DNA from: a virus
Reading direction: 5' to 3' (one strand)
Virus record (IMG/VR): IMGVR_UViG_3300021139_000017
Length of the DNA: 56,462 nucleotides
Position 1 is the first letter of the stretch; the number at the start of each line of letters is the position of its first letter. The translations under genes were made by a program, and so were the position numbers. Under the pieces are notes generated by a model. The model made no database searches. It was not told the origin of the DNA and worked only from the letters and a program-made list of their open reading frames with translations. Positions 158 through 28,207 of the stretch are shown piece by piece.

Positions 158-790
158 GTTATTCGCTACGGATTTTGGTATGACTTTGGCCAGTTCGATT
201 CATGGTGGTTGTCCTGGTATTACTTCATGGGCAAATGCGGCGTGGATGCTTCCAAACTCCAACCGTCATTTGACATGGCCAAGAACGCTGGATGGACGAT
301 TCTTTTTTGGGATTGGGCATTTGTGTCTGAAAAGCCGCAGTGCATTCACCGCGACGAACAGGGCCGGTTGCATTGTGAATCCGGCCCGTCCATTCACTAC
401 GAAGGCTTTGACGTGTTCGCCATTCACGGTGTTCGCGTGCCCGAAAAGGTGATTGTCGCACCGCAGACGCTGACGACTGCCGAGATTGACGCCGAGCAAA
501 ACGCGGAAGTTCGCCGGGTGATGATCGAACGCTACGGGCAGGATCACTACTTGATGGAATCCAAGGCGGCGAAAATCCATGAGGACGAGTTCGGCACACT
601 TTACCGCAAGGAAATCGTCGGCGACGAACCTCTCGTCATGGTCAAGGTCATTAATTCCACGCCGGAAAAGGACGGCTCATTCAAAGAATACTTCTTGCGC
701 GTTCCACCCACCATGCAGCGTGCCCGGCAGGCCGTGGCGTGGACGTTCGGCAAGGATGAAGCGGATTATCAGCCGGCGGCGCAATCCTGA
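1..790 (+). CDS. 3' portion of a junction-spanning gene: (Q-V-x-x)n repeat linker plus a conserved C-terminal domain of unknown function (recalled as DUF6745-like, unverified)
   Basis: Frame 2 is open from nt 2 to the stop at 788-790. It has the same codon phase (CAA GTC AGC GAC) as the ORF that starts at 56101 and runs off the window end. After removing the 54-nt overlap the joined gene is 1098 nt (365 aa). The C-terminal part (WDWAFVSEKP...DEQGRLHCESGPSIHYEGFDVFAIHGVRVP) looks like a widespread uncharacterised domain. Confidence 0.6.
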   Translation, partial: QVSDQVRAQVRNQVSDQVRAQVRNQVSDQVSDQVSDQVSDQVSDQVSDQVSDVIRYGFWYDFGQFDSWWLSWYYFMGKCGVDASKLQPSFDMAKNAGWTILFWDWAFVSEKPQCIHRDEQGRLHCESGPSIHYEGFDVFAIHGVRVPEKVIVAPQTLTTAEIDAEQNAEVRRVMIERYGQDHYLMESKAAKIHEDEFGTLYRKEIVGDEPLVMVKVINSTPEKDGSFKEYFLRVPPTMQRARQAVAWTFGKDEADYQPAAQS

Positions 791-793
791 TTT

Positions 794-1642
794 ATGCACG
801 CCCGCCCGATCCTATTCACCGGCGAGATGGTGCGCGCCATCCTTGCCGGCCGCAAGACGCAGACGCGGCGCACCATCACACCGCAGCCATCATCTGTTGA
901 ATACTGGGCAAAAGGCAAGCCAAGTGATCGGTTTAATGGCATGGCCGTGCTGCGCGATGCGGATGGCAGAGGCTGGTCCAGTTGTGGCGCGTTTCGCTGC
1001 AAATTTATCGCCGATGGAATGTGCGCCTTGCTCGGTGGAAAATTGGGGAACTCGAACCTTGAAGACAGGACCGAACGCAAATCGCTGCTCTGGGTGCGTG
1101 AGACATTCTGCAAGCCTGATAAACAGAATCCTCGTTATGCTGGAATGGTTGGAGATTATGTTTATCGGGCGGACTACGAATATCGGGAGCCTGCCAGAAG
1201 CGTATTGGTAGATTGCAAATGGAAGCCATCCATCTTCATGCCGCGCGCGGCTAGCCGCATCACACTGGAAATCGTCGCGGTGCGCGTGGAACGGTTGCAG
1301 GACATTAGTGAAAAGGATGCGAAGGCGGAAGGCGTCCAAGCCAGAGGCTTCAAGATTGAAATCTCGCCAAAAGACCTTTTGGAAATCTACATCAACCAAG
1401 GCCTCAAGTGTGCGCTCACCGGCTTGCCGATAGACTTCAAGGCGAAGAAGTGGTTTCACGGAACGGCATCAATAGACCGCATTGATAGCAAGAAAGGTTA
1501 TATCGCTGGCAATGTTCAATGGGTTCACACTGACATCAACAAAATGAAACTGGATTTTCAGCAAGATTATTTCATCCAAATGTGCCGCCGTGTGGCGAAC
1601 ATTGGCGGTATCTGGCTGGACGAAAACAAAGGAAAGGTATGA
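794..1642 (+). CDS. ASCH-like (PUA-fold) domain fused to an HNH-like nuclease module
   Basis: ATG at 794, 3 nt after the upstream stop. The N-terminus (PILFTGEMVRAILAGRKTQTRR ... LWVRETF ... WKPSIFMPRAASRITLEI) matches the phage ASCH-like family. The C-terminus (ASIDRIDSKKGYIAGNVQWVHTDINKMK) matches the phage HNH/homing-endonuclease-type motif. Confidence 0.6.
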   Translation: MHARPILFTGEMVRAILAGRKTQTRRTITPQPSSVEYWAKGKPSDRFNGMAVLRDADGRGWSSCGAFRCKFIADGMCALLGGKLGNSNLEDRTERKSLLWVRETFCKPDKQNPRYAGMVGDYVYRADYEYREPARSVLVDCKWKPSIFMPRAASRITLEIVAVRVERLQDISEKDAKAEGVQARGFKIEISPKDLLEIYINQGLKCALTGLPIDFKAKKWFHGTASIDRIDSKKGYIAGNVQWVHTDINKMKLDFQQDYFIQMCRRVANIGGIWLDENKGKV

Positions 1643-2304
1643 GTTACCACAGGAGACGGACCTTCTCTTTGAGCCTTGGCGATTGGCTGGATGACGAAGT
1701 GCCGATTGAATGGCTGGCAGAAATGTTGGACACCATCCGGCAATGCGCCGATGTGACGTGGATTCTCTGCACCAAGCGGCCGGAGAATTTTAAGGAGCGC
1801 CTGACGCGGGTGATGATGTGGTTTGAGAATACGCCCTGCACCAAACAAGGCACTGCTACATGGAACTGGGTTTTGAACTGGGTCACCGACATCACCGGGG
1901 TTTGCGCTCCAAAAAACATCATCCTGCTCACCAGCGTCGAGAATCAGGAGCAGGCCGACAAGCGCATCCCTGAACTACTCAAGATACCCGCCGTGTGCCG
2001 AGGCTTGAGCCTTGAGCCGCTGCTTGGGCCGGTGGATTTGGTTTCCAAAAAAGGAACAGCGGCTAACCGCTCAAGCTGGATAGCAAAACAATCGAACGAA
2101 CCAAATATCCATTGGCTCATCATCGGCGGCGAGTCAGGCCCAAATGCCCGCGAAATGGGACTTGGTTGGATTCATTCATTGGTCGCACAAGCTGATGCGG
2201 CTGGTGTTCCAGTGTTCGTCAAACAGGACAGCGGCAAAAAGTCTGGATTGCAAGGTTGCATACCTGATGAAATTTGGAACAGAAAGGAGTTTCCAAAACT
2301 ATGA
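1639..2304 (+). CDS. Gp37/Gp68 (DUF5131) family protein, apparently lacking the N-terminal Cys-rich segment
   Basis: ATGA start/stop overlap with the upstream gene. Motifs seen: FSLSLGDWLDDEVP, WILCTKRPENF, LLTSVENQ, RGLSLEPLLGP, WLIIGGESGPNAR, PVFVKQ. The family's usual first ~60 aa (IEWT...GC..CYA) are absent. Confidence 0.65.
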   Translation: MSYHRRRTFSLSLGDWLDDEVPIEWLAEMLDTIRQCADVTWILCTKRPENFKERLTRVMMWFENTPCTKQGTATWNWVLNWVTDITGVCAPKNIILLTSVENQEQADKRIPELLKIPAVCRGLSLEPLLGPVDLVSKKGTAANRSSWIAKQSNEPNIHWLIIGGESGPNAREMGLGWIHSLVAQADAAGVPVFVKQDSGKKSGLQGCIPDEIWNRKEFPKL

Positions 2305-3473
2305 ACCCGCAACCGACACTTTGGGAAGGGGAGAGGAAAACGCTGGCCGACTCGCTGGACATGACAGCGCAGAGTCTCAACGCTTACGGCGCGGATTACG
2401 ACCATTGGGCAATCGCATTCAGCGGCGGCAAAGACTCATCTGCGACCGTCGCCGCCGTGGTCTATCTCATCGAGCAAGGCAAAGTAAAAGCGCCGAAATC
2501 TCTAACGGTCATCATGTCTGATACTCGCATGGAATTGCCGCCGCTGTTCTCAACAGCCATGAAGATCATGGGCGAACTCAAGGCGCGCGGCGTCAAAACT
2601 CAAGTGGTCATGCCGAAAATGGATGACCGCTTTTTCGTCTATATGTTCGGGCGCGGTGTTCCGCCGCCGTCGAACACTTTCCGTTGGTGCACCGCGCAAC
2701 TCAAGATCGAGCCAATGGTGGATGCGTTCAAGGCGCTGCGGGATGAATACGGCCAAAAATTCTTGATGCTTACAGGCGTCCGCATTGGCGAAAGCGCAGC
2801 GCGTGACGCTCGCATCGCTGTTTCCTGTGGCAAGAATAATTCCGAGTGCGGGCAAGGCTGGTTTCAGGAAGCCACACCGGAAGCCGTCGCCGACACGCTC
2901 GCGCCGTTGCTGCATTGGCGTCTTTGCCATGTCTGGGACTGGCTGACCGGGCAGCATGAACTTGAACCACACGGATTTTCAACTTCACTTATTGCCGCTG
3001 TTTATGGGCAGGATGAAAACCTAGAGACACACGCCCGCACCGGCTGCGTTGGATGCAACCTAGCAAGCCGCGACTTCGCGCTTGAATCCATCATCCAGCG
3101 GCCACAGTGGAAGCATTATCACCCGCTGATGGAACTGCGGCTACTGTATGCCGAGCTAAAGCGTCCGCATTGCCGCCTACGCAAGGACGGCAGCGAAACC
3201 CGCCAAGATGGCTCGCTCGTCGCCAATCCGTGCCGCATGGGGCCGCTGACGTTCGACGCTCGCAGGTTCGGTCTGGCTCGCATCAAAGACATTCAGACCC
3301 GCGCTGGTGTTGACCTGATTAACGCCGACGAGGAAGCGCGCATCTTGGAATTGATCGAGTCGCAGACTTGGCCGCGTGGCTGGGATGGCAGCGAACCGAT
3401 GGCGTCGGACATCTTCGACAACGTGAACCCCGACGGCAGCGTCCAACCCATCATGCGCGAGTTGATGACATGA
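2301..3473 (+). CDS. DndC/SspD-like PP-loop ATP pyrophosphatase (PAPS-reductase superfamily)
   Basis: ATGA overlap with the upstream gene and an AAAGGAG Shine-Dalgarno site. SGGKDS P-loop, MSDTRMELPP, FGRGVPPPSNTFRWCTAQLKIEP and GVRIGESAARD are typical of DndC. GCVGC lies near the C-terminus. Confidence 0.75.
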   Translation: MNPQPTLWEGERKTLADSLDMTAQSLNAYGADYDHWAIAFSGGKDSSATVAAVVYLIEQGKVKAPKSLTVIMSDTRMELPPLFSTAMKIMGELKARGVKTQVVMPKMDDRFFVYMFGRGVPPPSNTFRWCTAQLKIEPMVDAFKALRDEYGQKFLMLTGVRIGESAARDARIAVSCGKNNSECGQGWFQEATPEAVADTLAPLLHWRLCHVWDWLTGQHELEPHGFSTSLIAAVYGQDENLETHARTGCVGCNLASRDFALESIIQRPQWKHYHPLMELRLLYAELKRPHCRLRKDGSETRQDGSLVANPCRMGPLTFDARRFGLARIKDIQTRAGVDLINADEEARILELIESQTWPRGWDGSEPMASDIFDNVNPDGSVQPIMRELMT

Positions 3474-3670
3474 ATTTGACTTTTGATTTTACCGGGTTAA
3501 AACCAAAATATCCCACCGCGCATAAATCGTCGGTGGATGGTCGTTCAATTTGCTGTGCTGTATGCAAACTGTTTTTTAACAGTTATGGTATTCCACAGCG
3601 CGTTTGGAACCGAATGAGTGAATGTCAGCGCGCGGATTATTCGAAAAATGAAACGCGAAACCACGTTTAG
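3470..3670 (+). CDS. hypothetical 66-aa protein
   Basis: ATGA overlap with the DndC-like stop. No recognisable motif. Overlaps the next gene by 23 nt. Confidence 0.35.
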   Translation: MNLTFDFTGLKPKYPTAHKSSVDGRSICCAVCKLFFNSYGIPQRVWNRMSECQRADYSKNETRNHV

Positions 3671-4121
3671 CCATTGCCGCAAATATCGCTACACCCTATG
3701 GCGCGAATTTGAATGCGATGATATTTTTCAGCCGGCACAGTTTTTTAATAGCTTTGCACAATTTATTTGTCTGAATCCTTCGACTGCTGACGAAAACAAT
3801 GATGATCCAACCGTGAGGCGATGCATTCAATTTTCAAAAGATTGGGGATATGGCGCTTTCTGCATGACAAACATTTTTGGATTTCGAGCGACTGATCCCA
3901 ACGTGATGAAGGCGCAGGATGACCCTATCGGCTGCGACAACACCAACCAGATTCGGGAAATTGCTGAACATGCTGGAATTATAATTGCCGCCTGGGGACG
4001 ACATGGATTTCATCTTTATCGCCAAGCTCAAGTTTTAGACGCACTTCAGCCATGGAAAGAAAAGGTCCATTGTCTTGGGTTGGATGGAATGGAAACAGGA
4101 TTGCACCCGCCATTCGGCTAG
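3648..4121 (+). CDS. DUF1643 family protein
   Basis: ATG at 3648. Motifs CRKYRYTLWREF, FICLNPSTADENNDDPTVRRC, GYGAFCMTNIFGFRATDP, IIAAWG and a C-terminal HPPF(G) match the DUF1643 pattern. Confidence 0.6.
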   Translation: MKRETTFSHCRKYRYTLWREFECDDIFQPAQFFNSFAQFICLNPSTADENNDDPTVRRCIQFSKDWGYGAFCMTNIFGFRATDPNVMKAQDDPIGCDNTNQIREIAEHAGIIIAAWGRHGFHLYRQAQVLDALQPWKEKVHCLGLDGMETGLHPPFG

Positions 4122-4269
4122 CAGTTATTGGCTGGCGAAGACTGGCGAAGCGGCGAAGATTGCAACTGCCCTGGCGCATTCTGAATCGGTCATGCGTAAA
4201 AATTATATGGCGCTCGTTACCCAGGCAGACGCAGAAAAGTTCTGGCTTTTGAAACCAAGCCTCATTTGA
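4075..4269 (+). pseudogene. C-terminal remnant of a tyrosine recombinase (integrase)
   Basis: The frame reads QDCTRHSASSYWLAKTGEAAKIATALAHSESVMRKNYMALVTQADAEKFWLLKP. This matches the conserved integrase C-terminus (HDLRHSFASywLa ... LGHS.s.m...hY ... A..fW), including the catalytic-Tyr position. The upstream ~300 aa of an integrase are absent, and the 5' end overlaps the DUF1643 gene. Confidence 0.5.
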
Positions 4270-4603
4270 CGATTTCCGCTTTCACTTCGCAAAGGCCGAG
4301 GGGCAACCCATTGAGTTTTGAAAATGCGGCCGGCGACAGATCAATGCGGCCGGCGAATCTCCGAGCAGGCCGGTCCGTGACGCGAACAATAACCCAGCAT
4401 CCATTGTGGGAATCAGTTATTCGCAACAATGTTCCCAACGGCCATTGCCACGTTGCACAGGTCATCGCAGACGGATCGAAATGGGATCCGGAAGACGCCA
4501 ACCTTCCTTCGTCGTCGAAACGCTCCCATGAAGCAATATCGCCGCACGCGCGCCAAAGCACGAATAACGCGGCAATGATCAAAATTGCGAGTTGTCGCCT
4601 CAT
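4262..4603 (-). CDS. RlpA-like double-psi beta-barrel lytic transglycosylase with an N-terminal signal/anchor (candidate endolysin)
   Basis: ATG at 4603. N-terminal hydrophobic segment AILIIAALFVLW. ASW...GRLASSG..FDPSAMTCA...PLGTLLRITDSHNGCWVIVRVTDRPARRFAGRIDLSPAAFSKL matches the RlpA/DPBB pattern. Confidence 0.65.
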   Translation of the reverse strand: MRRQLAILIIAALFVLWRACGDIASWERFDDEGRLASSGSHFDPSAMTCATWQWPLGTLLRITDSHNGCWVIVRVTDRPARRFAGRIDLSPAAFSKLNGLPLGLCEVKAEIVK

Positions 4604-4605
4604 GT

Positions 4606-5457
4606 TTATTGGGCCGATGCTGATTGTGCGGCAGAAGTCATTACTGCCAAAGAATTGGCATTGGCATCATCAATTTCGAAGGCAGGTATCACAGGATTGA
4701 TTCGGGTATGAGCGGCGCCCATTTCTTCAGCGGCAAGCCAAACCATTGAGTTTTCTGGGCCGCTATAGGCAATGTCGAACGTGACGGCCGCAACGGTGGC
4801 AATTGGTGGGTTGGTGAGGTCGGTTTTTGCCCAAGCCCACGGCGTATTTCCATTGCCGAGCGATAGCATTGTGTGGCTTTCATCGGGAGCCAGACGCCGC
4901 GCCTCTGATAATGCCAGCATGTCCGGCGCATTGAATCCGGTAGATCCACCATCCCAAAAGACATTATTTCCGATTTTGTGTGCTGGAAAATAGCTTTGTG
5001 CCGCACTGGATGCCATCATCACATCCACCATCAGCATTCCGCTATCAGGACCAATCACAATCTCGTCGCCGTCGAAACGACTTTCTCCATAACTCTGAAA
5101 ATAGGTTCTTCGGCCAGTTGTCATTTCATCGGCTGTGGCTATGAACTTGGTTTTGCAATCTGCCAGGGTTGCATTTCCAACCACCGACAGCAGCGCGTTA
5201 CGCAGATTGTCCGATGAATACTTTGCGGACGCAAAAATCCGGTTAATTGGAATCCACCATGCGCCTGAAAAAATGGTCGGGGCTGACTTGGTGAAGAATG
5301 ACGAAACATCCTTGATCCCGAGCGCGTAGCATCCCCCGACAATGCTGCCAACAGAAGTCCCGGCAATCAGGTCAAAATCCGGATGTCCTTTGGCGTTTAG
5401 AATCGCGCAATGCATAATCCCGCGAGTTCCACCGCCTTGGAGAGCCAGAATTTTCAT
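4606..5457 (-). CDS. patatin-like phospholipase
   Basis: Oxyanion motif LQGGGTRG, nucleophile elbow GTSVG and the catalytic Asp motif WDGG are all present in the expected order. No signal peptide. The stop is 2 nt from the RlpA-like start. Confidence 0.85.
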   Translation of the reverse strand: MKILALQGGGTRGIMHCAILNAKGHPDFDLIAGTSVGSIVGGCYALGIKDVSSFFTKSAPTIFSGAWWIPINRIFASAKYSSDNLRNALLSVVGNATLADCKTKFIATADEMTTGRRTYFQSYGESRFDGDEIVIGPDSGMLMVDVMMASSAAQSYFPAHKIGNNVFWDGGSTGFNAPDMLALSEARRLAPDESHTMLSLGNGNTPWAWAKTDLTNPPIATVAAVTFDIAYSGPENSMVWLAAEEMGAAHTRINPVIPAFEIDDANANSLAVMTSAAQSASAQ

Positions 5458-5664
5458 TTAGCAGACTTCTTGGCTGTTCGCCAGTTTCTTGCAGTTGCCC
5501 ACGATGGCCACGTCGCCATCGGCGAGCTTGATGTCTGCGCCGTCGCCGGGCGGCAGGAAGGCGACGATGCGCGAGATGTGCGTGTCACCGTCTGCCGAGC
5601 AGTAAAGCACCGTGTCGCCGATTTGCGCGACAGTCGAGCCGTTGGAATAGAATTTTTCACCCAT
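5458..5664 (-). CDS. hypothetical 68-aa protein, abutting the patatin gene
   Basis: ATG at 5664. Its stop codon sits directly against the patatin start codon. Composition looks beta-rich. Confidence 0.5.
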   Translation of the reverse strand: MGEKFYSNGSTVAQIGDTVLYCSADGDTHISRIVAFLPPGDGADIKLADGDVAIVGNCKKLANSQEVC

Positions 5665-5668
5665 AAAG

Positions 5669-6118
5669 TTATTGGGTTGCTTTTAATCCAGATGCTGTTC
5701 CGGCCAATATTGCTTCCAATGCAGCGGTCAATTGCGCATTTTGGTTCAGCGCGCCTTTGACCGTTCCCTGTCCGGCATACTGACTAAATTTCGTTGTAAT
5801 GGCATCCACCAGCACGGCGTAAAGAGCCTTGTCGCCTTGCACGTTTGCGGCCACCAGCGCATCCTTCACAGCGGCAGGATCCACAGTTCCGGTGGAAATG
5901 AGTTGACCAAGCACGGTGTCCACCAGCGCAATGTCAGTCTTGGCCGCAGGGTTCTGGGTGACATATTGCTCGGTGGCGACTTCCGCAGCCAATCGCAGGT
6001 TGCTTGGGTCGGTGATGGTTTGAACGATGACGTTGCCGTTGCTCGGCGCGGTTGAGCATCCGGTGAAAGCCAGTGCCGCAACGGCGGCAAGGCAGAGAGT
6101 CCATTTGTTGAATTTCAT
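5669..6118 (-). CDS. lipoprotein
   Basis: N-terminus MKFNKWTLCLAAVAALAFTGCS is a signal peptide with an FTGC lipobox. Confidence 0.7.
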   Translation of the reverse strand: MKFNKWTLCLAAVAALAFTGCSTAPSNGNVIVQTITDPSNLRLAAEVATEQYVTQNPAAKTDIALVDTVLGQLISTGTVDPAAVKDALVAANVQGDKALYAVLVDAITTKFSQYAGQGTVKGALNQNAQLTAALEAILAGTASGLKATQ

Positions 6119-6142
6119 ATTTGCGTTTTTTTTGGTTGATGA

Positions 6143-6625
6143 TTAAAAGCTGATTGTGGCTTGCACCGCTCCGAGCAACCCAGCTTTGTCAGTTGCACAG
6201 AATTTGTCTCCGGCCTCCGTCTCGATCCCCATATTTTTGGTAAGCCGAAATTCCAATGTGGCGTCAACGACGGTGTAATTGGAGCCATCGGTAAAATCTT
6301 TTCCCGCGCCCAATCTGCCACCAATAGCAAAACGCCAGAAAGGCCAGCGCACGTTGTAATCAACCTGGCTGTAATCAAACAAAAGCGCGTTGAGATGTGA
6401 AAAGCTGGTCACGCCGGCGCGGATGCCGCCGCCGTAGTGGATGGATTGCCAATATGTCCCGCCTAGTTCCGTTCCCGTGGACATGCGCGTAACAGGATGC
6501 GCGAATGAAAATGCCGGACCTGCCATAATTTCAATCTCGCTGGCAGCATAAAAATTCGTGCAAGATTGAGCTTTAGCACCGATGCAAATTACAAAAAACG
6601 CGATGAGTGTATAAAATATTTTCAT
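6143..6625 (-). CDS. small outer-membrane beta-barrel protein (OmpX/Ail/Lom size class)
   Basis: ATG at 6625 gives MKIFYTLIAFFVICIGAKAQ (signal peptide). The mature part is about 140 aa with alternating hydrophobic strands, Gly/aromatic girdles and a C-terminal ...ATISF (terminal Phe, BAM-type signal). Confidence 0.6.
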   Translation of the reverse strand: MKIFYTLIAFFVICIGAKAQSCTNFYAASEIEIMAGPAFSFAHPVTRMSTGTELGGTYWQSIHYGGGIRAGVTSFSHLNALLFDYSQVDYNVRWPFWRFAIGGRLGAGKDFTDGSNYTVVDATLEFRLTKNMGIETEAGDKFCATDKAGLLGAVQATISF

Positions 6626-6735
6626 AAAGTTAGGCTTTTCGACCTGCGCCTCACGCTCAACTCCTGATTCAATTCCATGAAATGGGTTGAGCCAGCCGGG
6701 TGAATTGGCAGTGTCTAACGCAGGACGAAAATTTT

Positions 6736-7053
6736 TCATGCTTTTGGTAAATTGCTTGGCGGCATTTCTGCCAAAATGCCTTTTATGTCATCCGCCGATA
6801 GCGAACCATTTTTTTGAATCGTCGTCATGGAGTTGTCCAGAAACGCAATAATTGTAGTGGCAATCGCCAAGACAATATTGGCGTGCATCTTTTGAATTTG
6901 CAGCGGTGTCATGGCGGAAACATCGTCAAAACCTTCAACGGATGCCATCCAGGCGTTGTGTGCCACGACGTAGAGGTAAATGGTCAGCCGCACGGTGGCT
7001 ATCCGCCAATAAAGCGGCAGCGATTCAAAGAAGTTTTTAAGCGGGACTGGCAT
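6736..7053 (-). CDS. two-TM membrane protein (holin candidate)
   Basis: Hydrophobic segments WRIATVRLTIYLYVVAHNAWMA and ANIVLAIATTIIAFL, with a charged C-tail. Lies between the fibre genes and the lysis enzymes. Confidence 0.45.
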   Translation of the reverse strand: MPVPLKNFFESLPLYWRIATVRLTIYLYVVAHNAWMASVEGFDDVSAMTPLQIQKMHANIVLAIATTIIAFLDNSMTTIQKNGSLSADDIKGILAEMPPSNLPKA

Positions 7054-7054
7054 A

Positions 7055-7378
7055 TTAATGAGAATGAATAAAGTAATGAATGGTTTCGACGGCGGCCGCA
7101 GTCAACGTGGCCGTGCCTACGATGATTGTTCCAAGCGTCGTAACTGCTTTAGCCATGCCCATGCCATTGTTTTTAACGTCTTCCAGCGCCCGCACCCTAG
7201 GCTCTAATGTGCCGCACGATCCCGGTGATGAGCATGGAGGATTTGCGTTAATATAAGCCTCTATTCTTGCAAACCGTTGAAGCAGTTCCTTGGTATCGCT
7301 ATGGATTTCTACCAAAGCAGGTTCGGCAACGCCGCGCCACGCTTTTAAGTTTGCCACCTCTTGCTGCATATCTTGCAT
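7055..7378 (-). CDS. coiled-coil protein with a C-terminal TM anchor (holin/antiholin/spanin-like candidate)
   Basis: The N-terminal part looks helical/coiled-coil. The C-terminus AVTTLGTIIVGTATLTAAAV is a single TM segment. Confidence 0.45.
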   Translation of the reverse strand: MQDMQQEVANLKAWRGVAEPALVEIHSDTKELLQRFARIEAYINANPPCSSPGSCGTLEPRVRALEDVKNNGMGMAKAVTTLGTIIVGTATLTAAAVETIHYFIHSH

Positions 7379-7382
7379 AGAT

Positions 7383-7739
7383 TTATTTCTGATTTACACC
7401 TAGCCCCGTCGGTGCAGGAAATTGAATTATTGGCATCATAAATTGGTTTGTATCAAACAAAATTGGGGTCGCCATGCTCGAGGCTTCTGCCCCATTCCCC
7501 CAAGTTGAGCAGATCGTCAACCAACTCCCATTAGGCACCTGCTGGATTGGGATGTTTGTTGTCCCGGTATTGCACGAACCAAACCAGTGATTTGTGGCTG
7601 TGTTGTTTGTTGGACACCAATAAGCAGCATAGCCATTAACTCCATTCGTCGCATCAGACTGCGATGGAACGAATCCAAGCGAAAAGCTTTGCCCCATTGT
7701 TTGAGCAGCGATTAGGATAAATAACAAAATGAATTTCAT
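7383..7739 (-). CDS. small secreted Cys-containing protein
   Basis: ATG at 7739 overlaps the upstream stop (ATGA). MKFILLFILIAAQTMGQS is a signal peptide. The mature part has 3 Cys and is N/T/G rich. Confidence 0.55.
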   Translation of the reverse strand: MKFILLFILIAAQTMGQSFSLGFVPSQSDATNGVNGYAAYWCPTNNTATNHWFGSCNTGTTNIPIQQVPNGSWLTICSTWGNGAEASSMATPILFDTNQFMMPIIQFPAPTGLGVNQK

Positions 7740-9400
7740 TGAATTTGAAGTAGCGCATTGGTTTTCCAAGGCGTAACCGTGAAAAGCCAATTATTCGAGC
7801 AAACAATTTTAACGACCCCAGGAACAGGTATAAAGTTGCTAGCGTTGTAGTTTGTCGCCAGTAAAGTTGTGGTGTTAGTTAATCCGCCACCATTTCCAAA
7901 GAATTGTTCACCGGCAGGTAATTGAAAGCCGTTTGTGGTTAAGGTTGCCACCAGATTGGTGGGAGTGGCCGCTGTGGCAATGAACCATTGCTCGCCGCTG
8001 TTGGTGTTGAAAATGTAGTTGCGCACCCAGCCTGGCGAGCTACCGATCGGCGTGTAAATGTAGCCCACGTCATTCGCATAACCGCCGGCATTGAAGTTGG
8101 TGTAGTTGGCCGAATTGTAATAAAATCCGAAATAATTCTGCACATCCGACGTGCTACCGGGCTGATTCAAATACCAACCCGTCTCGGACGCGCCGTTGGT
8201 GTTCAGGTTTTGAATGACCACCTGGACATAGGTGTTGGTATTCCCAAGAACCGTGAGCGCATTCTGAAAATTGTTGCTGATGGTGTTGAGAGCAATATTA
8301 GTCAGTCCGGCTCCGTTGCCGATGATTATACTGCCAGTGGCAATGACGAGATTTGAATTTATGGTGACGTTGTTCGTCGTAATATTGATTGATCCGAGCG
8401 GAGAATAGCCAAGATTGACGATATCTTGATTCTGGTCAGCTTGGAAAATGGAATTACCGCGCACGTCATTAACCAGCGTCAAACCCGTCCCGCTGAACTC
8501 AAGCGACGGTGGCTGTGCATTAATTCCAAGGATTGCGCCAAAATAGCCCGACACCGTGGAGTGATGGACATACATGACGTTTGTGTCTGCCAGAAAGAAA
8601 TTAGCCTCTGGAAAAATTACGGGTGTGCTATTGGACTGAACCAACCCCAGTGTTGTCGAGTTGGTGAAATAAACATTCGCCGAATAAAGCGCGGTTTGCG
8701 AATACCCTAAATAATCCTGCTCTGCCAGTTGCGTGTAATTCGTCCCAGCGTGCGTCAGCCAGTAGTTACCGCCAATCCAGTTTGTAAATTTGATGTTTTC
8801 ACCAACAAAAAAACCTGCCCCGGCATCATAGACCTGAACCCCAATTTGGTTTGTTATCGTGTAATAAATGTTTGTGACATAAGAGTCTTGGATCGGACCT
8901 GTTGTGGCCGTTATAAAAGAATATGGCGAAGAGACACTTGTTATTAAATTATTGTAGTAAAAAACCCCATTTAAGCCCGTTCCGGCCCAATTCATTGCGG
9001 TGATGCCATTCACCGTATCAGGCAAAGTGCCTGAAGGAATAAAGTAATTGGTTGTGCTGACGCTGTATGGCGTTGCCACAGTTACGGCAAAATTAATTCC
9101 AAGATGCTGATTGGTAAAAATCACCACGCCATTCGTCAATGCTGGATAATTTGCAACATTAAATGTTTTCGAATCACCTGGATACCAAACCCCTCCAACG
9201 ACCACGGATCCTGCCGCCGGCGCCACACTTACCGAGCGCACTAACGCCGGAAAACCTCCGGACAACGATCCGAAATAAAATGCCACATTGTTGCTTTGTG
9301 CGGATGAAATGACCGCGCCGGCCAAGAAGATGGCAAACGCGGAAGTGAATAAGAAGCACGCCTTAAATCGGCGTGATAATGGAAAGCGTCTGGCAGTCAT
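7736..9400 (-). CDS. tail-fibre-like protein (554 aa) with an RR-containing signal-peptide-like N-terminus
   Basis: N-terminus MTARRFPLSRRFKACFLFTSAFAIFLAGAVISSAQS. N/T/S/G-rich beta-type composition. GNGAGLTNI and GNGGGLTN motifs resemble the G-x-G-x-GLTN repeats of phage tail fibres. Confidence 0.6.
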   Translation of the reverse strand: MTARRFPLSRRFKACFLFTSAFAIFLAGAVISSAQSNNVAFYFGSLSGGFPALVRSVSVAPAAGSVVVGGVWYPGDSKTFNVANYPALTNGVVIFTNQHLGINFAVTVATPYSVSTTNYFIPSGTLPDTVNGITAMNWAGTGLNGVFYYNNLITSVSSPYSFITATTGPIQDSYVTNIYYTITNQIGVQVYDAGAGFFVGENIKFTNWIGGNYWLTHAGTNYTQLAEQDYLGYSQTALYSANVYFTNSTTLGLVQSNSTPVIFPEANFFLADTNVMYVHHSTVSGYFGAILGINAQPPSLEFSGTGLTLVNDVRGNSIFQADQNQDIVNLGYSPLGSINITTNNVTINSNLVIATGSIIIGNGAGLTNIALNTISNNFQNALTVLGNTNTYVQVVIQNLNTNGASETGWYLNQPGSTSDVQNYFGFYYNSANYTNFNAGGYANDVGYIYTPIGSSPGWVRNYIFNTNSGEQWFIATAATPTNLVATLTTNGFQLPAGEQFFGNGGGLTNTTTLLATNYNASNFIPVPGVVKIVCSNNWLFTVTPWKTNALLQIQ

Positions 9401-22831: not shown

Positions 22832-22980
22832 ACCAGCGTTTTTCAAATTCTGCTAGAATCACCTTGTTTTCATTGGCGAAAATAATTTTATTTTTTTGTT
22901 GTATGGCGCAAGCGGTTGCGTTATATTCTTACCAGTTCAAACGAACTAACCGAAACAGCCCGGCAAAATTGGCTGAAAAA

Positions 22981-23877
22981 ATGAAAGACCGAAATATGTA
23001 TTCCTTCACACACACAATGAACAGCCGCATTAACCGTTTTGGCGCATCCGCGCGTGCGCTTCGTTCCAACTCGCCTTTGACCGATGAACAAATCCGCAAC
23101 GTGGCGCCATCCGTTTTCGCGGACGCGGCGCACAGTTCGCGCTCGGCTCGTTATTCTACCATCCCCACCAGCGAAGTTTTGACCAGCTTGCGCCGTGAAG
23201 GGTTTCAACCCTTTGCCGTGACGCAAGGCGGATCGCGCGATGAAGAAAAGCGCGGTTTTACCAAGCACATGCTCCGCTTGCGCCACGAATCGAACATGGC
23301 CGCGCAAGTGGGCGACTCGTTTCAAGAAATTGTTTTGGTCAATTCGCATGATGGCACGTCGAGTTATCAACTCATGGCCGGCATGTTCCGGCTTGTTTGC
23401 TCAAATGGTATGGTGGCGGGCACGGGCAATGGCTTTGATGAAGTCCGCATCAAACATCAGGGCAATGTTATTCCAGCCGTGATTGATGGCTGCATTGAGA
23501 TTTTAGGACGCTTGCCGGCGGTATCGGGTGAAGTGGAAAATTTCAACCGGCTTCAGCTTACCCAGGGTGAGCAAAACGCTTTTGCGGCTGCCGCGCTGGC
23601 TGTGCGTTACGATGAACAGACCGCGCCATTTGAAGCGGCGAAACTTTTAACCGTGCATCGTCGGGATGATGCCGCGCCCACCCTTTGGAACACCTTAAAC
23701 ACCGTGCAAGAAAATGTGATTCGCGGCGGGGTGGGTTACGTTTTGCGGGATGAACAGGGCCGGCGAAAACAATATCGCCGCACGCGCGAAGTCGCTGGAA
23801 TTGACCAAAACGTGAAACTGAATCGCGGCTTGTGGGTTCTGGCGCAAGAAATGGCCAAACTGAAGGGAGCGAACTAA
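22981..23877 (+). CDS. DUF932 (DUF945-like) family protein
   Basis: NSRINRFG...PLTDEQIRNVAPSVFADAAHSSRSARYSTIPTSEVLTSLRREGFQPFAVTQ...FTKHMLRLRH...LVNSHDGTSSYQLMAGMFRLVCSNGMV is a close match to the family pattern seen on ICEs, prophages and plasmids. The start is uncertain: ATGs lie at 22981, 22996 and 23017, and the track start is TTG. Confidence 0.75.
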   Translation: MKDRNMYSFTHTMNSRINRFGASARALRSNSPLTDEQIRNVAPSVFADAAHSSRSARYSTIPTSEVLTSLRREGFQPFAVTQGGSRDEEKRGFTKHMLRLRHESNMAAQVGDSFQEIVLVNSHDGTSSYQLMAGMFRLVCSNGMVAGTGNGFDEVRIKHQGNVIPAVIDGCIEILGRLPAVSGEVENFNRLQLTQGEQNAFAAAALAVRYDEQTAPFEAAKLLTVHRRDDAAPTLWNTLNTVQENVIRGGVGYVLRDEQGRRKQYRRTREVAGIDQNVKLNRGLWVLAQEMAKLKGAN

Positions 23878-23988
23878 ACCGCGCAGTTATTCGCGGTCTT
23901 GGCTTGTCATGCCAGCGAGCCAAGCACGCGGAAAACACCGCAACCCAAACGGCGGGGAAATTACGCCGAATTTAAACAAACTGAAAAC

Positions 23989-26316
23989 ATGAAAACATTG
24001 ATTGCAATTAACAAAAATTCACGCGCGGCGATTAAATTTGCGGCGCTCGGCGTCAAACGGTCTAACCTGCCGATTTTGGGTAACGTCCATCTTTACGCGA
24101 ACGGATCACTTGAAATGGTTGGGACTGATTTAGACGTTTTTACGGTTTCACGCTGCGCGTGCGCTTCCGAAATCGACGGCAAAGTGACATTTCCGGCCGC
24201 AGCTTTGAAAGATGTCGCGGCGATTAAAGCCGATGGCAATATTTCGCTTTCGGCAGATGCTAAAAGCATCGTCACCATTTCGGCCAATGGTAACGAGCGA
24301 AAAATTTACGGCTTGCCCGCTACAGATTTTCCAGCCCTGCCCGAACTTGGGGAAAAGATTTACACCGCTTCATTTCCTGCCGCGAAATTCATTTCGGCTT
24401 TAAAATCTGTTTCGCTGGCGATGTCCACAGACGCAAGCCGATATGTTCTGAATGGCGTTTGTGTTGAGATTAGCGCGGATAACGTGCGCTTGGTTGCCAC
24501 CGATGGCCGCCGGCTGCAATTTGTGGACATTGCACGGGGGGAATCAGATGCGGAAATGATGGCCGCAATCTCTGCCGCGAAAACTGAATTTTCAATTGCC
24601 CAACTGGCGCGGGATGCGGCGCAAACGGTTTTGGCCGAAACAGAAAAGCAATTTCCAGCCAAGCCAATTGAAATTGAACACCGTCGCGGCCGCAAATCTT
24701 CACGGTTTGAAGATTCAGAGCAAACCAAGCTGGCGCGGGAAAACTATGCGCAAGCTTGCCAAAAGCTATCTGAAGCCAGCCAGGCGCTGTCAGCTATTGA
24801 ACATGGGGAATCGTTTATCATCCCCGCCAAAGCCGTCAGCCTGATTCAAAAATTCCCGCTAGATAAAAAGGCGGATCAGACAATCAAAATTGAACTTTGG
24901 CAGGAACTTAAAGGCGTTGCGGCCGGATCGCGCTTCACGCTGGGGGAATTTTCCATCTATTCGCGGCTGGTCGAGGGGAATTTTCCGAACTGCCGCCAAG
25001 TCATTCCGGGGGATTGCAAGGAGCGGATCACTGTGCTGGCCAAAGAGTTTCAAGCCGTTTTGGAAGCCGCTGAAAAAGGAACATCTGAAAAACATAACGC
25101 TGTCGGCTTGTTTTTTGATAAAAATGGTTTGACCGTCAAAGCCAATGCGCCTGAGATTGGGGAAACGGTTGTCAAAATGCCGGGCAATTTCGCGCTGCAA
25201 AATCCGTTTTGCATCTCGTTTAATCCGCGCTATTTAATTGAAGCTTGCCAATCCTTCGCGGTGAATCATGCGGAAATGGTTTTGGAATTTGTGGATGAAC
25301 TTTCACCCGTCAAAATTCTTTCGACCGATGGCGCGCTTCAAGTTGTCATTATGCCAATGCGGATGGCTGGATCATCGCCGGTTACTGTCACGGATGAAGT
25401 TGCGCCAAGCAATGAAGAAAAGGCAAAGGCTGTTTGCGCCGAAATAAAAGGCGAAACTGCCACAGAACAAAAGCCGGTGATTTTGAATTGCGTGGCGAAC
25501 AACCAGCCAGAGCCAGTCGTTGCCGTGCCGGCCGTGCCCATTGCGGAGCCGGTCGCGGTTGCCGCTGTGGAAACACCTTGCCCGATAGAATACGACGCCA
25601 CAATCAACACCGCTAAGTTTATCGGGCATTGCCAAGCCGGCGAACGCTATAATAATTCCATCATCACAGGCAATTTTAACCGCAAAAAAAAGGCAATTGA
25701 ATTTGCGGCCGATAACGGGGGGAAAATCGCCGGATATTTGCACGGCAAATATGTTCGCGGTTGGGTTGTATCCGTGCCGATTGAAAAGCCGGCTGAATCG
25801 GTCGCGGCGAAATTGGAAAACGTCAAACCCTTATCACCAGAATTGCCAGAGCCGGAGACGCCGTTTGAAGTAACTACCCAGCCCGACGTGCGCGTGACGG
25901 TCGCGGGGGGAATTGTCACCCATTACGAGGTTTTAAGTCGTGCGGGGGGAATTTATTCGCGGGGAATCATCCTGATTGGCACCAAGATTGAAGCGTTGCG
26001 CGCGGTATTTGAGGATTTGACGTTTGAAGTTATCCAGGCGGAACCGATGAAGATTGAAACCACCTTTGCCGAATCGCCAGCCGAGGCGGTGGTTATCAAG
26101 CAAGCCGCGCCTTTGGTCATGGCCATTCGCCGCGACGAACGCGGGCAAATCATTAACGGCAATTTTCCCATGCGTGAAGCATCTGGTCCGGTGAAGTTGC
26201 CGCCAATCCCGCCGCGCAAAGGTGGCGCACTGGCAACCATGCTCGAGGCGGGGGAAAAATTGGCCGCTCTGATGATGACTAAACCTGTGCCGGCATTCAT
26301 CGGCGCGGAAATCTGA
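23989..26316 (+). CDS. DNA polymerase III beta sliding-clamp (DnaN) homologue with an internal insertion and a long C-terminal extension (775 aa)
   Basis: ATG at 23989. Clamp hallmarks appear in order: NLPILGNVHL, RLVATDGRRL, EGNFPNCRQVIP, ISFNPRYLIEACQ and VIMPMRM. An ~85-aa helical insert follows RLVATDGRRLQFVDIA. About 310 further residues follow the clamp end. Confidence 0.75.
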   Translation: MKTLIAINKNSRAAIKFAALGVKRSNLPILGNVHLYANGSLEMVGTDLDVFTVSRCACASEIDGKVTFPAAALKDVAAIKADGNISLSADAKSIVTISANGNERKIYGLPATDFPALPELGEKIYTASFPAAKFISALKSVSLAMSTDASRYVLNGVCVEISADNVRLVATDGRRLQFVDIARGESDAEMMAAISAAKTEFSIAQLARDAAQTVLAETEKQFPAKPIEIEHRRGRKSSRFEDSEQTKLARENYAQACQKLSEASQALSAIEHGESFIIPAKAVSLIQKFPLDKKADQTIKIELWQELKGVAAGSRFTLGEFSIYSRLVEGNFPNCRQVIPGDCKERITVLAKEFQAVLEAAEKGTSEKHNAVGLFFDKNGLTVKANAPEIGETVVKMPGNFALQNPFCISFNPRYLIEACQSFAVNHAEMVLEFVDELSPVKILSTDGALQVVIMPMRMAGSSPVTVTDEVAPSNEEKAKAVCAEIKGETATEQKPVILNCVANNQPEPVVAVPAVPIAEPVAVAAVETPCPIEYDATINTAKFIGHCQAGERYNNSIITGNFNRKKKAIEFAADNGGKIAGYLHGKYVRGWVVSVPIEKPAESVAAKLENVKPLSPELPEPETPFEVTTQPDVRVTVAGGIVTHYEVLSRAGGIYSRGIILIGTKIEALRAVFEDLTFEVIQAEPMKIETTFAESPAEAVVIKQAAPLVMAIRRDERGQIINGNFPMREASGPVKLPPIPPRKGGALATMLEAGEKLAALMMTKPVPAFIGAEI

Positions 26317-26345
26317 AACCGACGAAACTTTAACCACTGCTTTTT

Positions 26346-26795
26346 ATGACTACTGAAATTTTCGGAAAACCGATTTTTACTTATAGCCGCGCCCAGGCGA
26401 TTGAAGATGGTTTTTTGGTGGATATTTCCAAGGCTGTCACGCCCTGCCCGTTCAAATACCCGGTGGCAATGACGCGCACAGCCTATGAATCCACCCTTGG
26501 CGCCGGTGGCTTTTGGGATGAAAAACCGGATGGCACGGCGGATTTGATTCTGCCCGGCGGTCAGGATTGCTCGGGCCGCGCTTGGGACGTTTTCCAAATG
26601 CTGCTGGCTACCATGCGTAACCCGCGACTTGATCCGCTGCAAATGCGGAACAGTGACAACACGCGCGTTTATTTCAGCGTGTTGATTGATACGCACGACA
26701 ACGGGCGCAAAACGCGCGTAGAATTGAAAAGCATATGCGGACCGGGCGACGATGCGGCGCCGGTCATCACCATTCTTTTGCGGGGGGAAGATTAA
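26346..26795 (+). CDS. ICE/plasmid-associated hypothetical protein (recalled as DUF6573-like, unverified)
   Basis: N-terminal YSRAQAIEDGFLVDIS and C-terminal GPGDDAAPVITILLRGED match a pattern I associate with conjugative-element proteins. Confidence 0.5.
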   Translation: MTTEIFGKPIFTYSRAQAIEDGFLVDISKAVTPCPFKYPVAMTRTAYESTLGAGGFWDEKPDGTADLILPGGQDCSGRAWDVFQMLLATMRNPRLDPLQMRNSDNTRVYFSVLIDTHDNGRKTRVELKSICGPGDDAAPVITILLRGED

Positions 26796-26817
26796 CCAAT
26801 AAAATGAAAGAAATTCT

Positions 26818-27123
26818 ATGAATAAAACACCACATACTCCCGGACCTTGGAAATCAGAAGATGCAAAAACACCACATGGTCGGCCGGTAATACAAAAGGA
26901 AATCGTCGCTGGCATTCGACACATTGCCGATGTCCGGCTTTACGAGGACGCGGATTTAGCCAATGCGCGATTGATTGCCGCCGCGCCAGAATTGCTTTCC
27001 GCTCTTGAAACAATTGTTCGCAAATCATATCTGCGACCGGGAAAGCATGAGGATTGCCAGATTCACCCCGCATTGATTGCTGACGCCCGTGCCGCCATCG
27101 CCAAAGCGAAAGGAAATCTGTGA
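26818..27123 (+). CDS. conserved phage hypothetical protein (101 aa)
   Basis: TPGPW near the N-terminus and ANARLIAAAPELLSALE form a recurrent small phage-protein motif. Confidence 0.5.
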   Translation: MNKTPHTPGPWKSEDAKTPHGRPVIQKEIVAGIRHIADVRLYEDADLANARLIAAAPELLSALETIVRKSYLRPGKHEDCQIHPALIADARAAIAKAKGNL

Positions 27124-27283
27124 AAACATTAAAAACTTTTCGTTGTCTTTTCATGTTTGGAAATGCTCAATGCGCAGATGAATCAGTTCAATGTGATTCC
27201 AAGACTGCCGCCGAAAAATGGGGACGCCAAACAGCCAAGCAACGAGGATGGCGCTTTTTGGAAGCTCGCCAGGGGGAGGCCGC

Positions 27284-28207
27284 ATGAAATCCATAACCCT
27301 ATTTTATCGCAATCTAGCCGAGAATGCCGACAAGGTTTATCAAGCCGAGATCGTCCCTAGCGCGGGGGGATTTGAAGTCGTTTGCCGATATGGCAAGCGG
27401 GGGGCAAAGCTGTCCTACGTTACCAAGACACGCCAGCCAGTGCCATTGGATGAAGCGCAAAAGATTTTCACTGGGCTTATCCGTGAGAAAACCGCGAAGG
27501 GTTACACCGATGACGCGGGGGGAATCCCTTTTAACGGGGACACGGTGAAACTTGGGGAAATTTTACCCCATCCCCGCAAAACACTTGTGACGTTAGCCGA
27601 GGCGCGCGAGTGGTCAACGTCTCAATTCCTCATTCAGCGCAAGCTGGACGGCAGCTTGGCTCGTCGGGAAGTCGCGGGGGCTGTCTTGCTTGGGGAACTG
27701 GTCACGGCGCGCTCTGGCGCGTTCCTGACGCCGGCTGATAGGGCTTTAATCGCCAAGCATGGCTCGTTTTTTGCCGCCTTTACCGTCGAATCGGTGCATG
27801 GGGAAAAAATGCTCACCAAATCCACGCGGGAACGCTGGGGGATCCTATGCAGTTTCGCTCCATACTTCCCGGCGGATGTCGTCCTGGTTGAATCCGCAAC
27901 CGTGCCGGACATGCTGACGGGGGAAGAAGGCTACGTCGCGCACAAATGGTCGGATGGCTGGGGGGAAATGTTATGCCACAAAGCCGAGGACATTTTCACC
28001 TGCCGCGTGACCGCTACGGGAGGGACGCAAGCCGCGCAAATCTGCGATGCCGCCACCGGCCAGGCACGCGGGGCTTGCAAGTTCGGCGGTGGAGCCATTG
28101 ATCGCGTGCGGATTGGATCGGTCGTGCGGATCGCTGGCATGGGGCTTACCGACGCGGGGAAAATCAGACAGCCAACCTTGTGCCGGGAATGGCTGGTTAA
28201 ATTCTAA
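27284..28207 (+). CDS. WGR domain fused to a minimal ATP-dependent DNA ligase
   Basis: GGGGGAGG Shine-Dalgarno site before the ATG at 27284. The N-terminus (FYRNLAENADKVYQAEIV...VVCRYGKRGAKL...GLIREKTAKGY) is WGR-like. This is followed by ligase motif I (QRKLDGS), motif IV-like EGYVAHK and an OB-like C-terminus. Confidence 0.7.
   Translation: MKSITLFYRNLAENADKVYQAEIVPSAGGFEVVCRYGKRGAKLSYVTKTRQPVPLDEAQKIFTGLIREKTAKGYTDDAGGIPFNGDTVKLGEILPHPRKTLVTLAEAREWSTSQFLIQRKLDGSLARREVAGAVLLGELVTARSGAFLTPADRALIAKHGSFFAAFTVESVHGEKMLTKSTRERWGILCSFAPYFPADVVLVESATVPDMLTGEEGYVAHKWSDGWGEMLCHKAEDIFTCRVTATGGTQAAQICDAATGQARGACKFGGGAIDRVRIGSVVRIAGMGLTDAGKIRQPTLCREWLVKF

Follow-up and report, generated by a model that had tools for sequence, protein, structure and literature searches.

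A CapV-like patatin gene next to an RlpA-like wall hydrolase gene in an environmental phage, with a possible role in envelope disruption at lysis

Background

Mycolata phages encode LysB, a lipid-ester-hydrolysing serine enzyme whose gene lies beside that of the endolysin and which finishes lysis by stripping off or breaking down the outer lipid layer; it has a cutinase-like alpha/beta-hydrolase fold and cleaves the mycolyl-arabinogalactan linkage of these hosts. To our knowledge, these are the only phages in which the role of lipid-hydrolysing lysis enzymes is established. Here we analyse a phage genome of 56,462 nucleotides (nt) from IMG/VR (record IMGVR_UViG_3300021139_000017; this whole stretch is called the window below) in which a gene for a patatin-like phospholipase is followed, on the same strand, by a gene for a small RlpA-like protein with a DPBB domain. 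An earlier note, made from the sequence alone, had drawn attention to these genes as a possible lysis cassette or exclusion module. Our tentative reading, to which we give a little less than an even chance, is that the region 4262-7378 constitutes the lysis-associated, lipid-degrading and envelope-disrupting end of the late tail operon.

The closest precedent is the "patatin-based lytic cassette" of Wolbachia phage WO, which was proposed without experiments (Bordenstein and Bordenstein 2022, PMC9203015). Since that proposal precedes ours, the earlier note overstated the novelty of a patatin in a lysis cassette; our literature search found no paper combining patatin with the term "lysis cassette". 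Both proposals invoke lysis by attack on membrane lipid, and in both genomes the patatin gene lies at the tail-module end, runs in the same direction as that module and comes after a gene for a small protein, a layout that we confirmed in the WO records. In contrast, the patatin of phage WO is thought to replace the endolysin, in a host without detectable peptidoglycan (PMC9203015), while the window also encodes the DPBB protein. The WO partners are an ankyrin protein and a "holin-like" protein with an N-terminal transmembrane domain (TMD), whereas those in the window are a lipoprotein and a barrel-like protein, and Pfam gave no ankyrin match among the window open reading frames (ORFs). The two patatins are only 27-30% identical, that of the window belonging to a separate CapV-like family of free-living environmental phages. 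What is new with respect to phage WO is therefore the CapV-like patatin family, the adjoining wall hydrolase, the outer-membrane-type partners and the environmental hosts.

Results and discussion

A CapV-like patatin in a tight gene cluster

As the earlier note described, three minus-strand genes lie head-to-tail: an ORF of 68 amino acids (aa) with an ATG start (5458-5664), the patatin gene (4606-5457, 283 aa) and the DPBB gene (4262-4603, 113 aa). Reading the sequence confirmed both junctions, the stop codon of the 68-aa ORF abutting the patatin start (...TGC TAA ATG AAA) and the patatin stop codon being separated from the DPBB start by 2 nt (...CAA TAA AC ATG AGG); on the other side, a lipoprotein gene ends 4 nt before the ATG of the 68-aa ORF. 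Such tight junctions suggest that the cluster is co-expressed with the late genes.

The patatin was characterized with Pfam, PADLOC and NCBIfam searches, an AlphaFold2 (AF2) model compared by Foldseek, and a family alignment. It matches PF01734 with E=1.4e-23 (84.6 bits; cut-off 27.7) and carries the three motifs listed in the earlier note, GGGTRG (residues 8-13), GTSVG (33-37, with Ser35) and WDGG (168-171, with Asp169); in enzymes with this Ser-Asp dyad the motifs are defined as G-G-G-x-[K/R]-G, G-x-S-x-G and D-G-[A/G] (PMC12480259). Ser35 and Asp169-Gly-Gly were invariant in all 26 aligned family members, and the oxyanion glycines G8-G9-G10 were kept in at least 90%. As the catalytic residues do not vary across members that are 38-100% identical, catalysis is under selection. 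The protein opens directly with strand beta-1 (MKILALQGGG) and so lacks an export signal, which agrees with the absence of a signal peptide noted before. From these features we predict a catalytically intact, cytoplasmic enzyme.

The AF2 model (predicted local distance difference test, pLDDT, 91; predicted template-modelling score 0.90) has the patatin alpha/beta/alpha fold. Foldseek placed AbCapV first (template-modelling score, TM, 0.82), followed by CapE, plant patatin and PlpD, with ExoU and VipD far behind, and the E values against Pat17 and CapV were 1e-17 to 1e-20. At the sequence level, the PADLOC family "CBASS effector, phospholipase" matches over the full length at 8e-41, an NCBIfam "anti-phage phospholipase" family also matches, and the nearest solved structures are phospholipases activated by cyclic GMP-AMP (cGAMP). 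The comparison with CapV made in the earlier note was thus well chosen, CapV-type effectors being the closest family both by sequence and by fold. However, the score against NCBIfam NF041079 ("CBASS cGAMP-activated phospholipase"; 8e-38, 130.4 bits) is below the equivalog cut-off of 200, so that the enzyme is CapV-like rather than CapV by the curated criterion.

CapV kills the cell from within, by breaking down its membrane (PMC12480259). Like CapV and CapE, which are activated by cGAMP or cUA, the window patatin is a single-domain enzyme, predicted to be cytoplasmic, with the same three motifs; unlike them, it is phage-encoded in a late array, has envelope-protein partners and has no CD-NTase nearby. 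Neither this cyclase nor any other CBASS part was found among the window ORFs, and PADLOC detected no CBASS cyclase, sensor or other defence partner among 126 genes flanking the homologues in 12 loci. A canonical CBASS was rejected on these grounds together with the sub-threshold family score.

In AbCapV, mutation of F147, K149, D159, E207 or R279 abolishes activation by cGAMP (PMC12480259). The first four align with similar residues of the window patatin (Y119, Q121, D131 and E185, respectively), E185 being conserved in at least 90% of the phage family, and a TGRxxYFQSY motif around the aligned cGAMP-contact hairpin is strongly conserved. The counterpart of R279 would lie in the C-terminal third, which has no sequence-level alignment. 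An orphan effector with a CapV-like fold, partly conserved contact positions and the invariant TGRxxYFQSY at the equivalent hairpin could be an anti-CBASS decoy, binding host cyclic nucleotides to soak them up, or could hijack the host signal so as to speed phage-timed lysis. Yet strict invariance of the catalytic dyad would be unnecessary in a protein that only soaks up nucleotides, which makes this explanation less likely; R279 and other ligand contacts fall in the part that does not align, the conserved lipoprotein and barrel-like partners described below are left unexplained, and nothing indicates that the hosts carry CBASS. We regard such a function as improbable.

Searches of 5.8 billion proteins yielded 79 relatives of the patatin, 56 of them close (38-100% identity), all metagenomic. 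Almost all homologues lie on phage-like contigs (9 IMG/VR loci and 22 metagenome loci), the family extending into large phage contigs of 134-204 kb, and among 185,579 species-representative genomes there was a single match, on a contig binned as Verrucomicrobiota (L017). In the isolate phage collection, the homologues detected (23-30% identity) were limited to 6 of 8 WO phage records, a single Megaira phage and an uncultured phage. For the study of neighbourhoods we collected 44 loci with patatin or DPBB homologues, and the partners were counted in 24 dereplicated loci.

Envelope proteins encoded upstream of the patatin

The whole region 4262-7378 is co-directional and nearly gapless, with genes for two membrane proteins, a barrel-like protein, a lipoprotein, the 68-aa ORF, the patatin and the DPBB protein, in this order. 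The lipoprotein (5669-6118, minus strand; 149 aa) has the signal sequence MKFNKWTLCLAAVAALAFTG followed by the lipobox Cys, and an Ala-rich mature domain that looks helical by sequence. Its homologues were present in 8 of the 24 dereplicated loci, always upstream of the patatin and usually adjacent to it, and the lipobox Gly-Cys is invariant in this 8-member family; a second lipoprotein family is encoded upstream of the patatin in 3 further loci of the 24. By these sequence comparisons, no other partner of the patatin is as well conserved as the lipoprotein. Searches of phage isolates and a profile search of the PDB gave no match for it.

The next gene (6143-6625, minus strand, although the start could lie as far upstream as 6739) encodes an exported protein of about 160 aa with the signal peptide MKIFYTLIAFFVICIGAKAQS and a C-terminus of alternating polarity (...AVQATISF). 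BLASTP and tblastn found homologues directly upstream of the patatin in L004, L007, L008 and L028, all of them ending in Phe; the family (about 160-200 aa) is present in 5 loci, and similarly built proteins occur in others. One member has a weak Pfam match to OMP_b-brl (E=0.038) that reaches the C-terminus of the model; sequence and profile searches of the PDB gave none. The family is rare, with 24 representatives at E<=1e-3 among 1.84 billion proteins. We infer an outer-membrane barrel fold because the proteins have a signal peptide, a C-terminus of alternating polarity and an invariant Phe as the last residue.

Further upstream are two candidate membrane proteins. The holin-like candidate of 107 aa (7055-7378, minus strand) has a helical N-terminal part and a Gly/Ala/Thr-rich C-terminal transmembrane segment, placed at residues 81-97 by a hydropathy scan. 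A search for its sequence homologues in the other loci gave none; L001, L002, L010 and L015 also encode, upstream of the patatin, small proteins with one TMD that is often C-terminal. The second protein, of 105 aa (6736-7053, minus strand), has a clear hydrophobic segment at residues 56-72 and possibly another. None of the envelope proteins encoded at 5669-7378 matched Pfam, PHROG, PADLOC, NCBIfam or the PDB.

Neighbours with a signal peptide, a lipobox or a TMD are encoded directly upstream of the patatin in most loci, which favours a function in the envelope at lysis, and the conserved unit consists of the lipoprotein, with or without the barrel-like and TMD proteins, plus the patatin. A lipoprotein encoded in the cassette recalls the o-spanins, and the proposed role is the same as that of spanins and disruptin, which take away the outer membrane, the final barrier to lysis. 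Unlike a short o-spanin, however, the lipoprotein has 149 aa and looks helical, and the proposed action is enzymatic instead of membrane fusion. Neither an i-spanin partner with an N-terminal TMD and a coiled coil nor any match to a spanin family (Pfam, PHROG) was recognised in the window. The lipoproteins and the beta-signal-like end of the barrel-like protein suggest that the host envelope is that of a conventional diderm.

The RlpA-like protein and the integrase relic

The last gene of the array (4262-4603, minus strand) was assigned from its Pfam and NCBIfam matches. The 113-aa protein scores above the Pfam cut-off for PF03330 (DPBB_1; E=4.3e-8, 33.7 bits, cut-off 28.8), which gives the cluster the muralytic gene of a lysis cassette, the activity being predicted, and below that of NCBIfam rlpA TIGR00413 (2e-12, 47.5 bits, cut-off 82.15). 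Its N-terminus, MRRQLAILIIAALFVLWRAC, can be read as a signal peptide or anchor, as proposed earlier, and its ...LWRAC is not a canonical lipobox. Cellular RlpA combines a SPOR domain with a lipoprotein anchor (PMC6895207). The window protein resembles this septal-ring lytic transglycosylase in the DPBB catalytic fold and conserved motifs, and differs in its length of 113 aa, in having neither a canonical lipobox nor a match to the SPOR domain, and in its sub-threshold TIGR00413 score. Some 30 close homologues (99-124 aa, 53-72% identity) have short hydrophobic or typical signal N-termini, and the motifs ASW...TCA...V(R/T)V(T/I)D(R/I)P...R(I/L)DLS are kept. RlpA-like domains are present in 34 phage records, among them cyanophage tail hub or "lysozyme" proteins and a Psychrobacter phage "endolytic peptidoglycan transglycosylase".

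Among the roughly 70 window ORFs with 60 aa or more, a Pfam search (E<=1e-3) detected no further peptidoglycan hydrolase. Within the sensitivity of Pfam, the DPBB protein is thus the only candidate endolysin of the genome, and its sequence would fit a Sec-exported endolysin with a lytic transglycosylase fold.

In the readable contigs the DPBB gene closes a co-directional array, and in L019/L020 it is the last gene of its block. In L021, L022 and L049 it is followed by a convergent integrase gene (407 aa in L021) and then by bacterial genes, which identifies this element as an integrated prophage. The window retains at the corresponding place a 64-aa relic of the C-terminus of a tyrosine integrase (4075-4269, plus strand), 73% identical to residues 304-365 of the L021 integrase, convergent with the DPBB gene and overlapping its 3' end. 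The relic probably marks the former att/int end of a prophage. As searches of the window turned up no complete integrase domain, the phage seems to have lost lysogeny. Genes for a DUF1643 protein and a PAPS-reductase-like protein occupy the place expected for the rest of int.

In Moraxella phage Mcat6 (L045), a 109-aa DPBB protein with a signal peptide is encoded at 3917-4246, directly before attR and the integrase gene and without lysis-like neighbours, and the DPBB genes of Mcat4 and Mcat8 are similarly placed near the end of the record. Small secreted RlpA-like genes at the att end of prophages may be a wider pattern.

This arrangement brings in a second explanation, that the barrel-like, lipoprotein, patatin and DPBB genes are att-proximal cargo (a moron), placed beside the integrase of a phage that used to be temperate, and served not lysis but the lysogen, in superinfection exclusion, in abortive infection with the lipase as the suicide effector, or in envelope remodelling or virulence. 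The cluster abuts the integrase relic, and the Moraxella prophages carry secreted DPBB genes in the same position without lysis genes. The closest patatin families (PADLOC, 8e-41; NCBIfam CBASS_lipase and "anti-phage phospholipase"; the CapV and CapE structures) are defence effectors, several cGAMP-contact positions of AbCapV have similar counterparts, including the conserved E185, and the partners would be envelope proteins of the lom/bor type. On the other side, the phage has lost its integrase and kept the patatin gene intact, no CD-NTase, sensor or defence partner accompanies the patatin in the window or among the 126 neighbours, its score is under the CapV equivalog cut-off, and the genome would be left without an identified lysis enzyme unless the DPBB protein is one.

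Homologous loci and the 68-aa ORF

The 68-aa ORF (5458-5664, minus strand) takes up the space that separates the lipoprotein gene from the patatin gene. The region is open in two overlapping frames, of which the ATG frame was chosen when genes were called independently on L046, a metagenome contig of identical sequence, and the GC content at third codon positions (GC3) is 0.78, against about 0.5 in the neighbouring genes. In neither frame did we find a homologue in the 44 loci, and there was no match to Pfam, PHROG, PADLOC or NCBIfam families; the nearest relatives of the patatin (68-74% identity) have no 68-aa gene upstream. A conserved regulator was therefore rejected, and the idea of the earlier note that this ORF encodes a partner regulating the patatin has no comparative backing, the ORF being an orphan. 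The tight coupling of the trio fared no better, because apart from the window itself a DPBB gene comes after the patatin gene only in L029, 39 nt downstream, and in L032, with one gene between. We regard the 68-aa partner and the tight coupling as features of this window alone.

In L001 and L002 the gene right after the patatin encodes a coiled-coil protein of 444-515 aa, which is followed by large structural-looking genes. L001 is a 72-kb phage-like contig labelled Patescibacteria, and is probably a binned phage. Together with the location of the window patatin among or after tail-region genes, and with the Megaira phage, in which the patatin gene lies between those of the terminase and a tail fibre, this layout would suit a virion-associated enzyme, packaged or attached to the tail, that opens host outer-membrane lipid during infection. 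The constant neighbours, however, carry Sec or lipoprotein signals, which points to components of the cell envelope and not of the virion and makes an entry function less likely. Moreover, no similarity to known ejection or tail proteins was found, and an arriving phage would normally meet an outer leaflet that does not consist of phospholipid. We consider this the least credible of the explanations, with very little probability.

Other genes recur or stand out beside the patatin. In L004 (4879-5541) and L008 (10943-11608) the gene right after it encodes a membrane-anchored PAS protein of about 220 aa (PAS_4, 1.7e-7), which may be a sensor; PAS folds recur beside the patatin, with 4 members in a Pfam survey of the homologues' neighbours, among the 25 most frequent of 43 families. 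In L001, a gene for a stand-alone response-regulator receiver domain (5619-6068) lies among small membrane-protein genes upstream of the patatin.

Other hydrolases beside wall hydrolase genes

On the 11.6-kb Verrucomicrobiota-binned contig L017 (5307-7056), a GH25 lysozyme gene (Pfam, 2.5e-34) is directly upstream of a 29%-identical patatin. In the prophage of L021/L049, genes for two TMD proteins come first, followed by those for a barrel-like protein with a terminal Phe, a protein of 204 aa, the DPBB protein and the integrase. The 204-aa protein (L021 6345-6959, the same as L049/L050 10001-10615) is an alpha/beta-hydrolase whose family, of 11 clusters, has an invariant AHSNG elbow, Asp136 and Gly-His-Ser186 (a Ser-Asp-His triad). 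No Pfam family matched above threshold, and the annotation of its homologues at JGI is carboxylesterase. Its model (pLDDT 78) resembles minimal lipases, Legionella RavL and the phospholipase PlaB, and monoacylglycerol lipases at TM 0.5-0.6. Gene order and fold together suggest that a second, unrelated serine hydrolase fold fills the slot of the patatin before the DPBB gene. In fold class this hydrolase is closer to LysB than is the window enzyme, which differs from LysB in its patatin fold and in its apparently conventional diderm host.

L019 (6246-7004, the same as L020 1795-2553) has between the barrel-like and DPBB genes one for a 252-aa protein, overlapping the DPBB gene by 4 nt. An N-terminal GGDSW motif had raised the possibility of an SGNH lipase, for which Pfam, NCBIfam and PDB searches gave no support, and we make no such claim.

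Genome context

Three minus-strand genes, for a large terminase at 36132-38282, for a portal at 33466-35394 and for a fused capsid protein at 30330-32996, identify the window as a phage genome, which also carries replication and recombination genes. Its termini share an exact 54-nt overlap, lying within a 12-nt tandem repeat, and because of this overlap the assembly is probably circular and complete; the repeat, CCAAGTCAGCGA / CCAAGTCCGCGC / CCAAGTCCGCAA, makes up both ends (1-200 and 56340-56462). We found no nucleotide-level relatives among 50,697 phage records, and the capsid protein is at most about 32% identical to those of isolates, over one third of its length. Judged from these comparisons, the phage is only distantly related to phage isolates.

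From 22806 down to 4262 runs a minus-strand array of large genes with small gaps and without family matches, presumably tail genes, and the genes beyond 4262 are convergent with it. A plus-strand block (22864-28207) breaks the continuity between the terminase and this array. The "end of the late operon" of the earlier note is thus correct for the tail-side array, which ends at 4262, and not for a single array running from the terminase. PHROGs gave no matches for the tail or cassette proteins, promoter and terminator scans of the gene cluster returned signals at chance level, and the GC content of the patatin and DPBB genes equals the genome mean. Facing the cassette, on the plus strand at 209-4121, are genes for DUF6745, an ASCH/HNH-like protein of 282 aa, DUF5131, the PAPS-reductase-like protein (399 aa; PHROG 12882, 1.6e-144) and DUF1643; a DUF1643 gene is also found a few kb from the patatin in L004-L006.

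Large Asn/Thr/Gly-rich "fibre-like" proteins encoded in the window at 7736-9400 and 7383-7790 (minus strand) begin with typical Sec signal peptides, as do those in L002 (1792-5664), L015 (772-8040), L010 (3596-6376), L011 (5572-7668) and L032 (4625-6517); one such peptide is MKIKVPFCLWLAVFAWLLALACKA followed by QTN. Sec signal peptides are not expected on virion tail fibres. Because of these signals, exported proteins appear to fill much of the region from the tail genes to the patatin, and this bears on the choice between lysis and cargo.

Lysis or cargo

If the cluster acts in lysis, the DPBB protein would be exported and act as the endolysin, and one or both small membrane proteins would permeabilise or depolarise the inner membrane at a programmed time. 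The patatin would have accumulated in the cytoplasm in a closed, inactive state, like apo-CapV, which is auto-inhibited with its lipid pocket closed (PMC12480259); on that precedent a cytoplasmic lipase could be tolerated until triggered. It would then hydrolyse phospholipid, either of the inner membrane from the cytoplasmic face or, after release, of the periplasmic leaflets, in which case the lipoprotein and the barrel-like protein might be its outer-membrane partners, docking or assisting it. The patatin would thereby be the enzymatic counterpart of spanin fusion and of LysB in mycobacteriophages, and the 68-aa ORF would be no conserved part of the system.

The gene order favours this role: tail genes, small transmembrane proteins, hydrolases and int follow each other as in the usual tail-holin-lysin-att-int layout, with the int relic abutting the DPBB gene, as a complete integrase gene does in L021/L049, which would place the cluster at the lysis end. 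Further points in favour are the selection on catalysis, the tight packing and ordinary composition of the cluster, the near-confinement of the family to phage-like contigs, the tail-end location of the patatin in phage WO, the separate associations of patatins with wall hydrolase genes (DPBB in L029 and L032, GH25 in L017), and the alpha/beta-hydrolase that takes the patatin's slot in L021/L049. From the lysis role envisaged in the earlier note we retain an intact patatin beside the only recognisable wall hydrolase of the genome, now with partners identified by comparison; the coupled trio and its regulator are dropped.

Several observations weigh against lysis. A patatin in lysis is a hypothesis in every known case, phage WO included. 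The adjacency of patatin and DPBB occurs in only 3 of about 24 dereplicated loci; among the nearest relatives, the patatin is followed by unrelated genes in P0005 and by a gene of at least 177 aa in P0003, and L001/L002 have their large structural-looking genes there. The holin candidates of 107 and 105 aa match no holin family in Pfam or PHROG, the lipid specificity of the alpha/beta-hydrolase is suggested by a model with TM values of only 0.5-0.6, and Pfam, NCBIfam and PDB searches assigned neither fold nor family to the 252-aa protein of L019. Outer-membrane proteins and lipoproteins are classic prophage cargo, as with lom and bor of lambda, and the Moraxella prophages have their small secreted DPBB genes beside att/int with no lysis-like neighbours. 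A periplasmic route for a patatin without signal peptide is not implied either, since a Sec-exported endolysin needs no large holin holes. Finally, cellular RlpA acts on denuded glycans with the help of its SPOR domain (PMC6895207), which is absent here.

Some of these points would suit cargo equally: the adjacency is not conserved, and the patatin behaves as a small module that changes its genomic context. Against cargo, the genes are packed into the late array with an unremarkable composition and no promoter or terminator above chance, the family is also present in the 134-204 kb phage contigs, and in L001/L002 the patatin is inside co-directional arrays of structural-looking genes, where morons expressed in the lysogen would not be expected. 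Cargo serving the lysogen is therefore a serious explanation that we nevertheless think rather unlikely, and we continue to prefer a function in lysis.

Conclusions

In its full form, our proposal is that a suicide phospholipase of the CapV-like kind was taken over by phages of environmental diderm bacteria for use as a dedicated lysis enzyme. With lipoprotein and barrel-like partners it would dissolve membrane lipid as an enzymatic alternative to spanins, the lipase slot would be exchangeable (patatin or alpha/beta-hydrolase), and gating of the CapV type, by a small molecule or by oligomerisation, may have been kept. Taken with all its parts, this is a speculative and, on balance, doubtful generalization. 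It touches the question of how the outer membrane is breached by the many Gram-negative phages in which no spanins are recognised. If true, there would be a defined, widespread module of patatin, lipoprotein and barrel-like protein, sometimes beside a DPBB or GH25 gene, which would give independent support to the hypothesis put forward for phage WO and provide candidate enzymes against Gram-negative envelopes. It would also connect in evolution, in either direction, an abortive-infection effector of bacteria with a lysis tool of phages. Should the alternative hold, the locus would mean a new orphan use of a CBASS-type effector.

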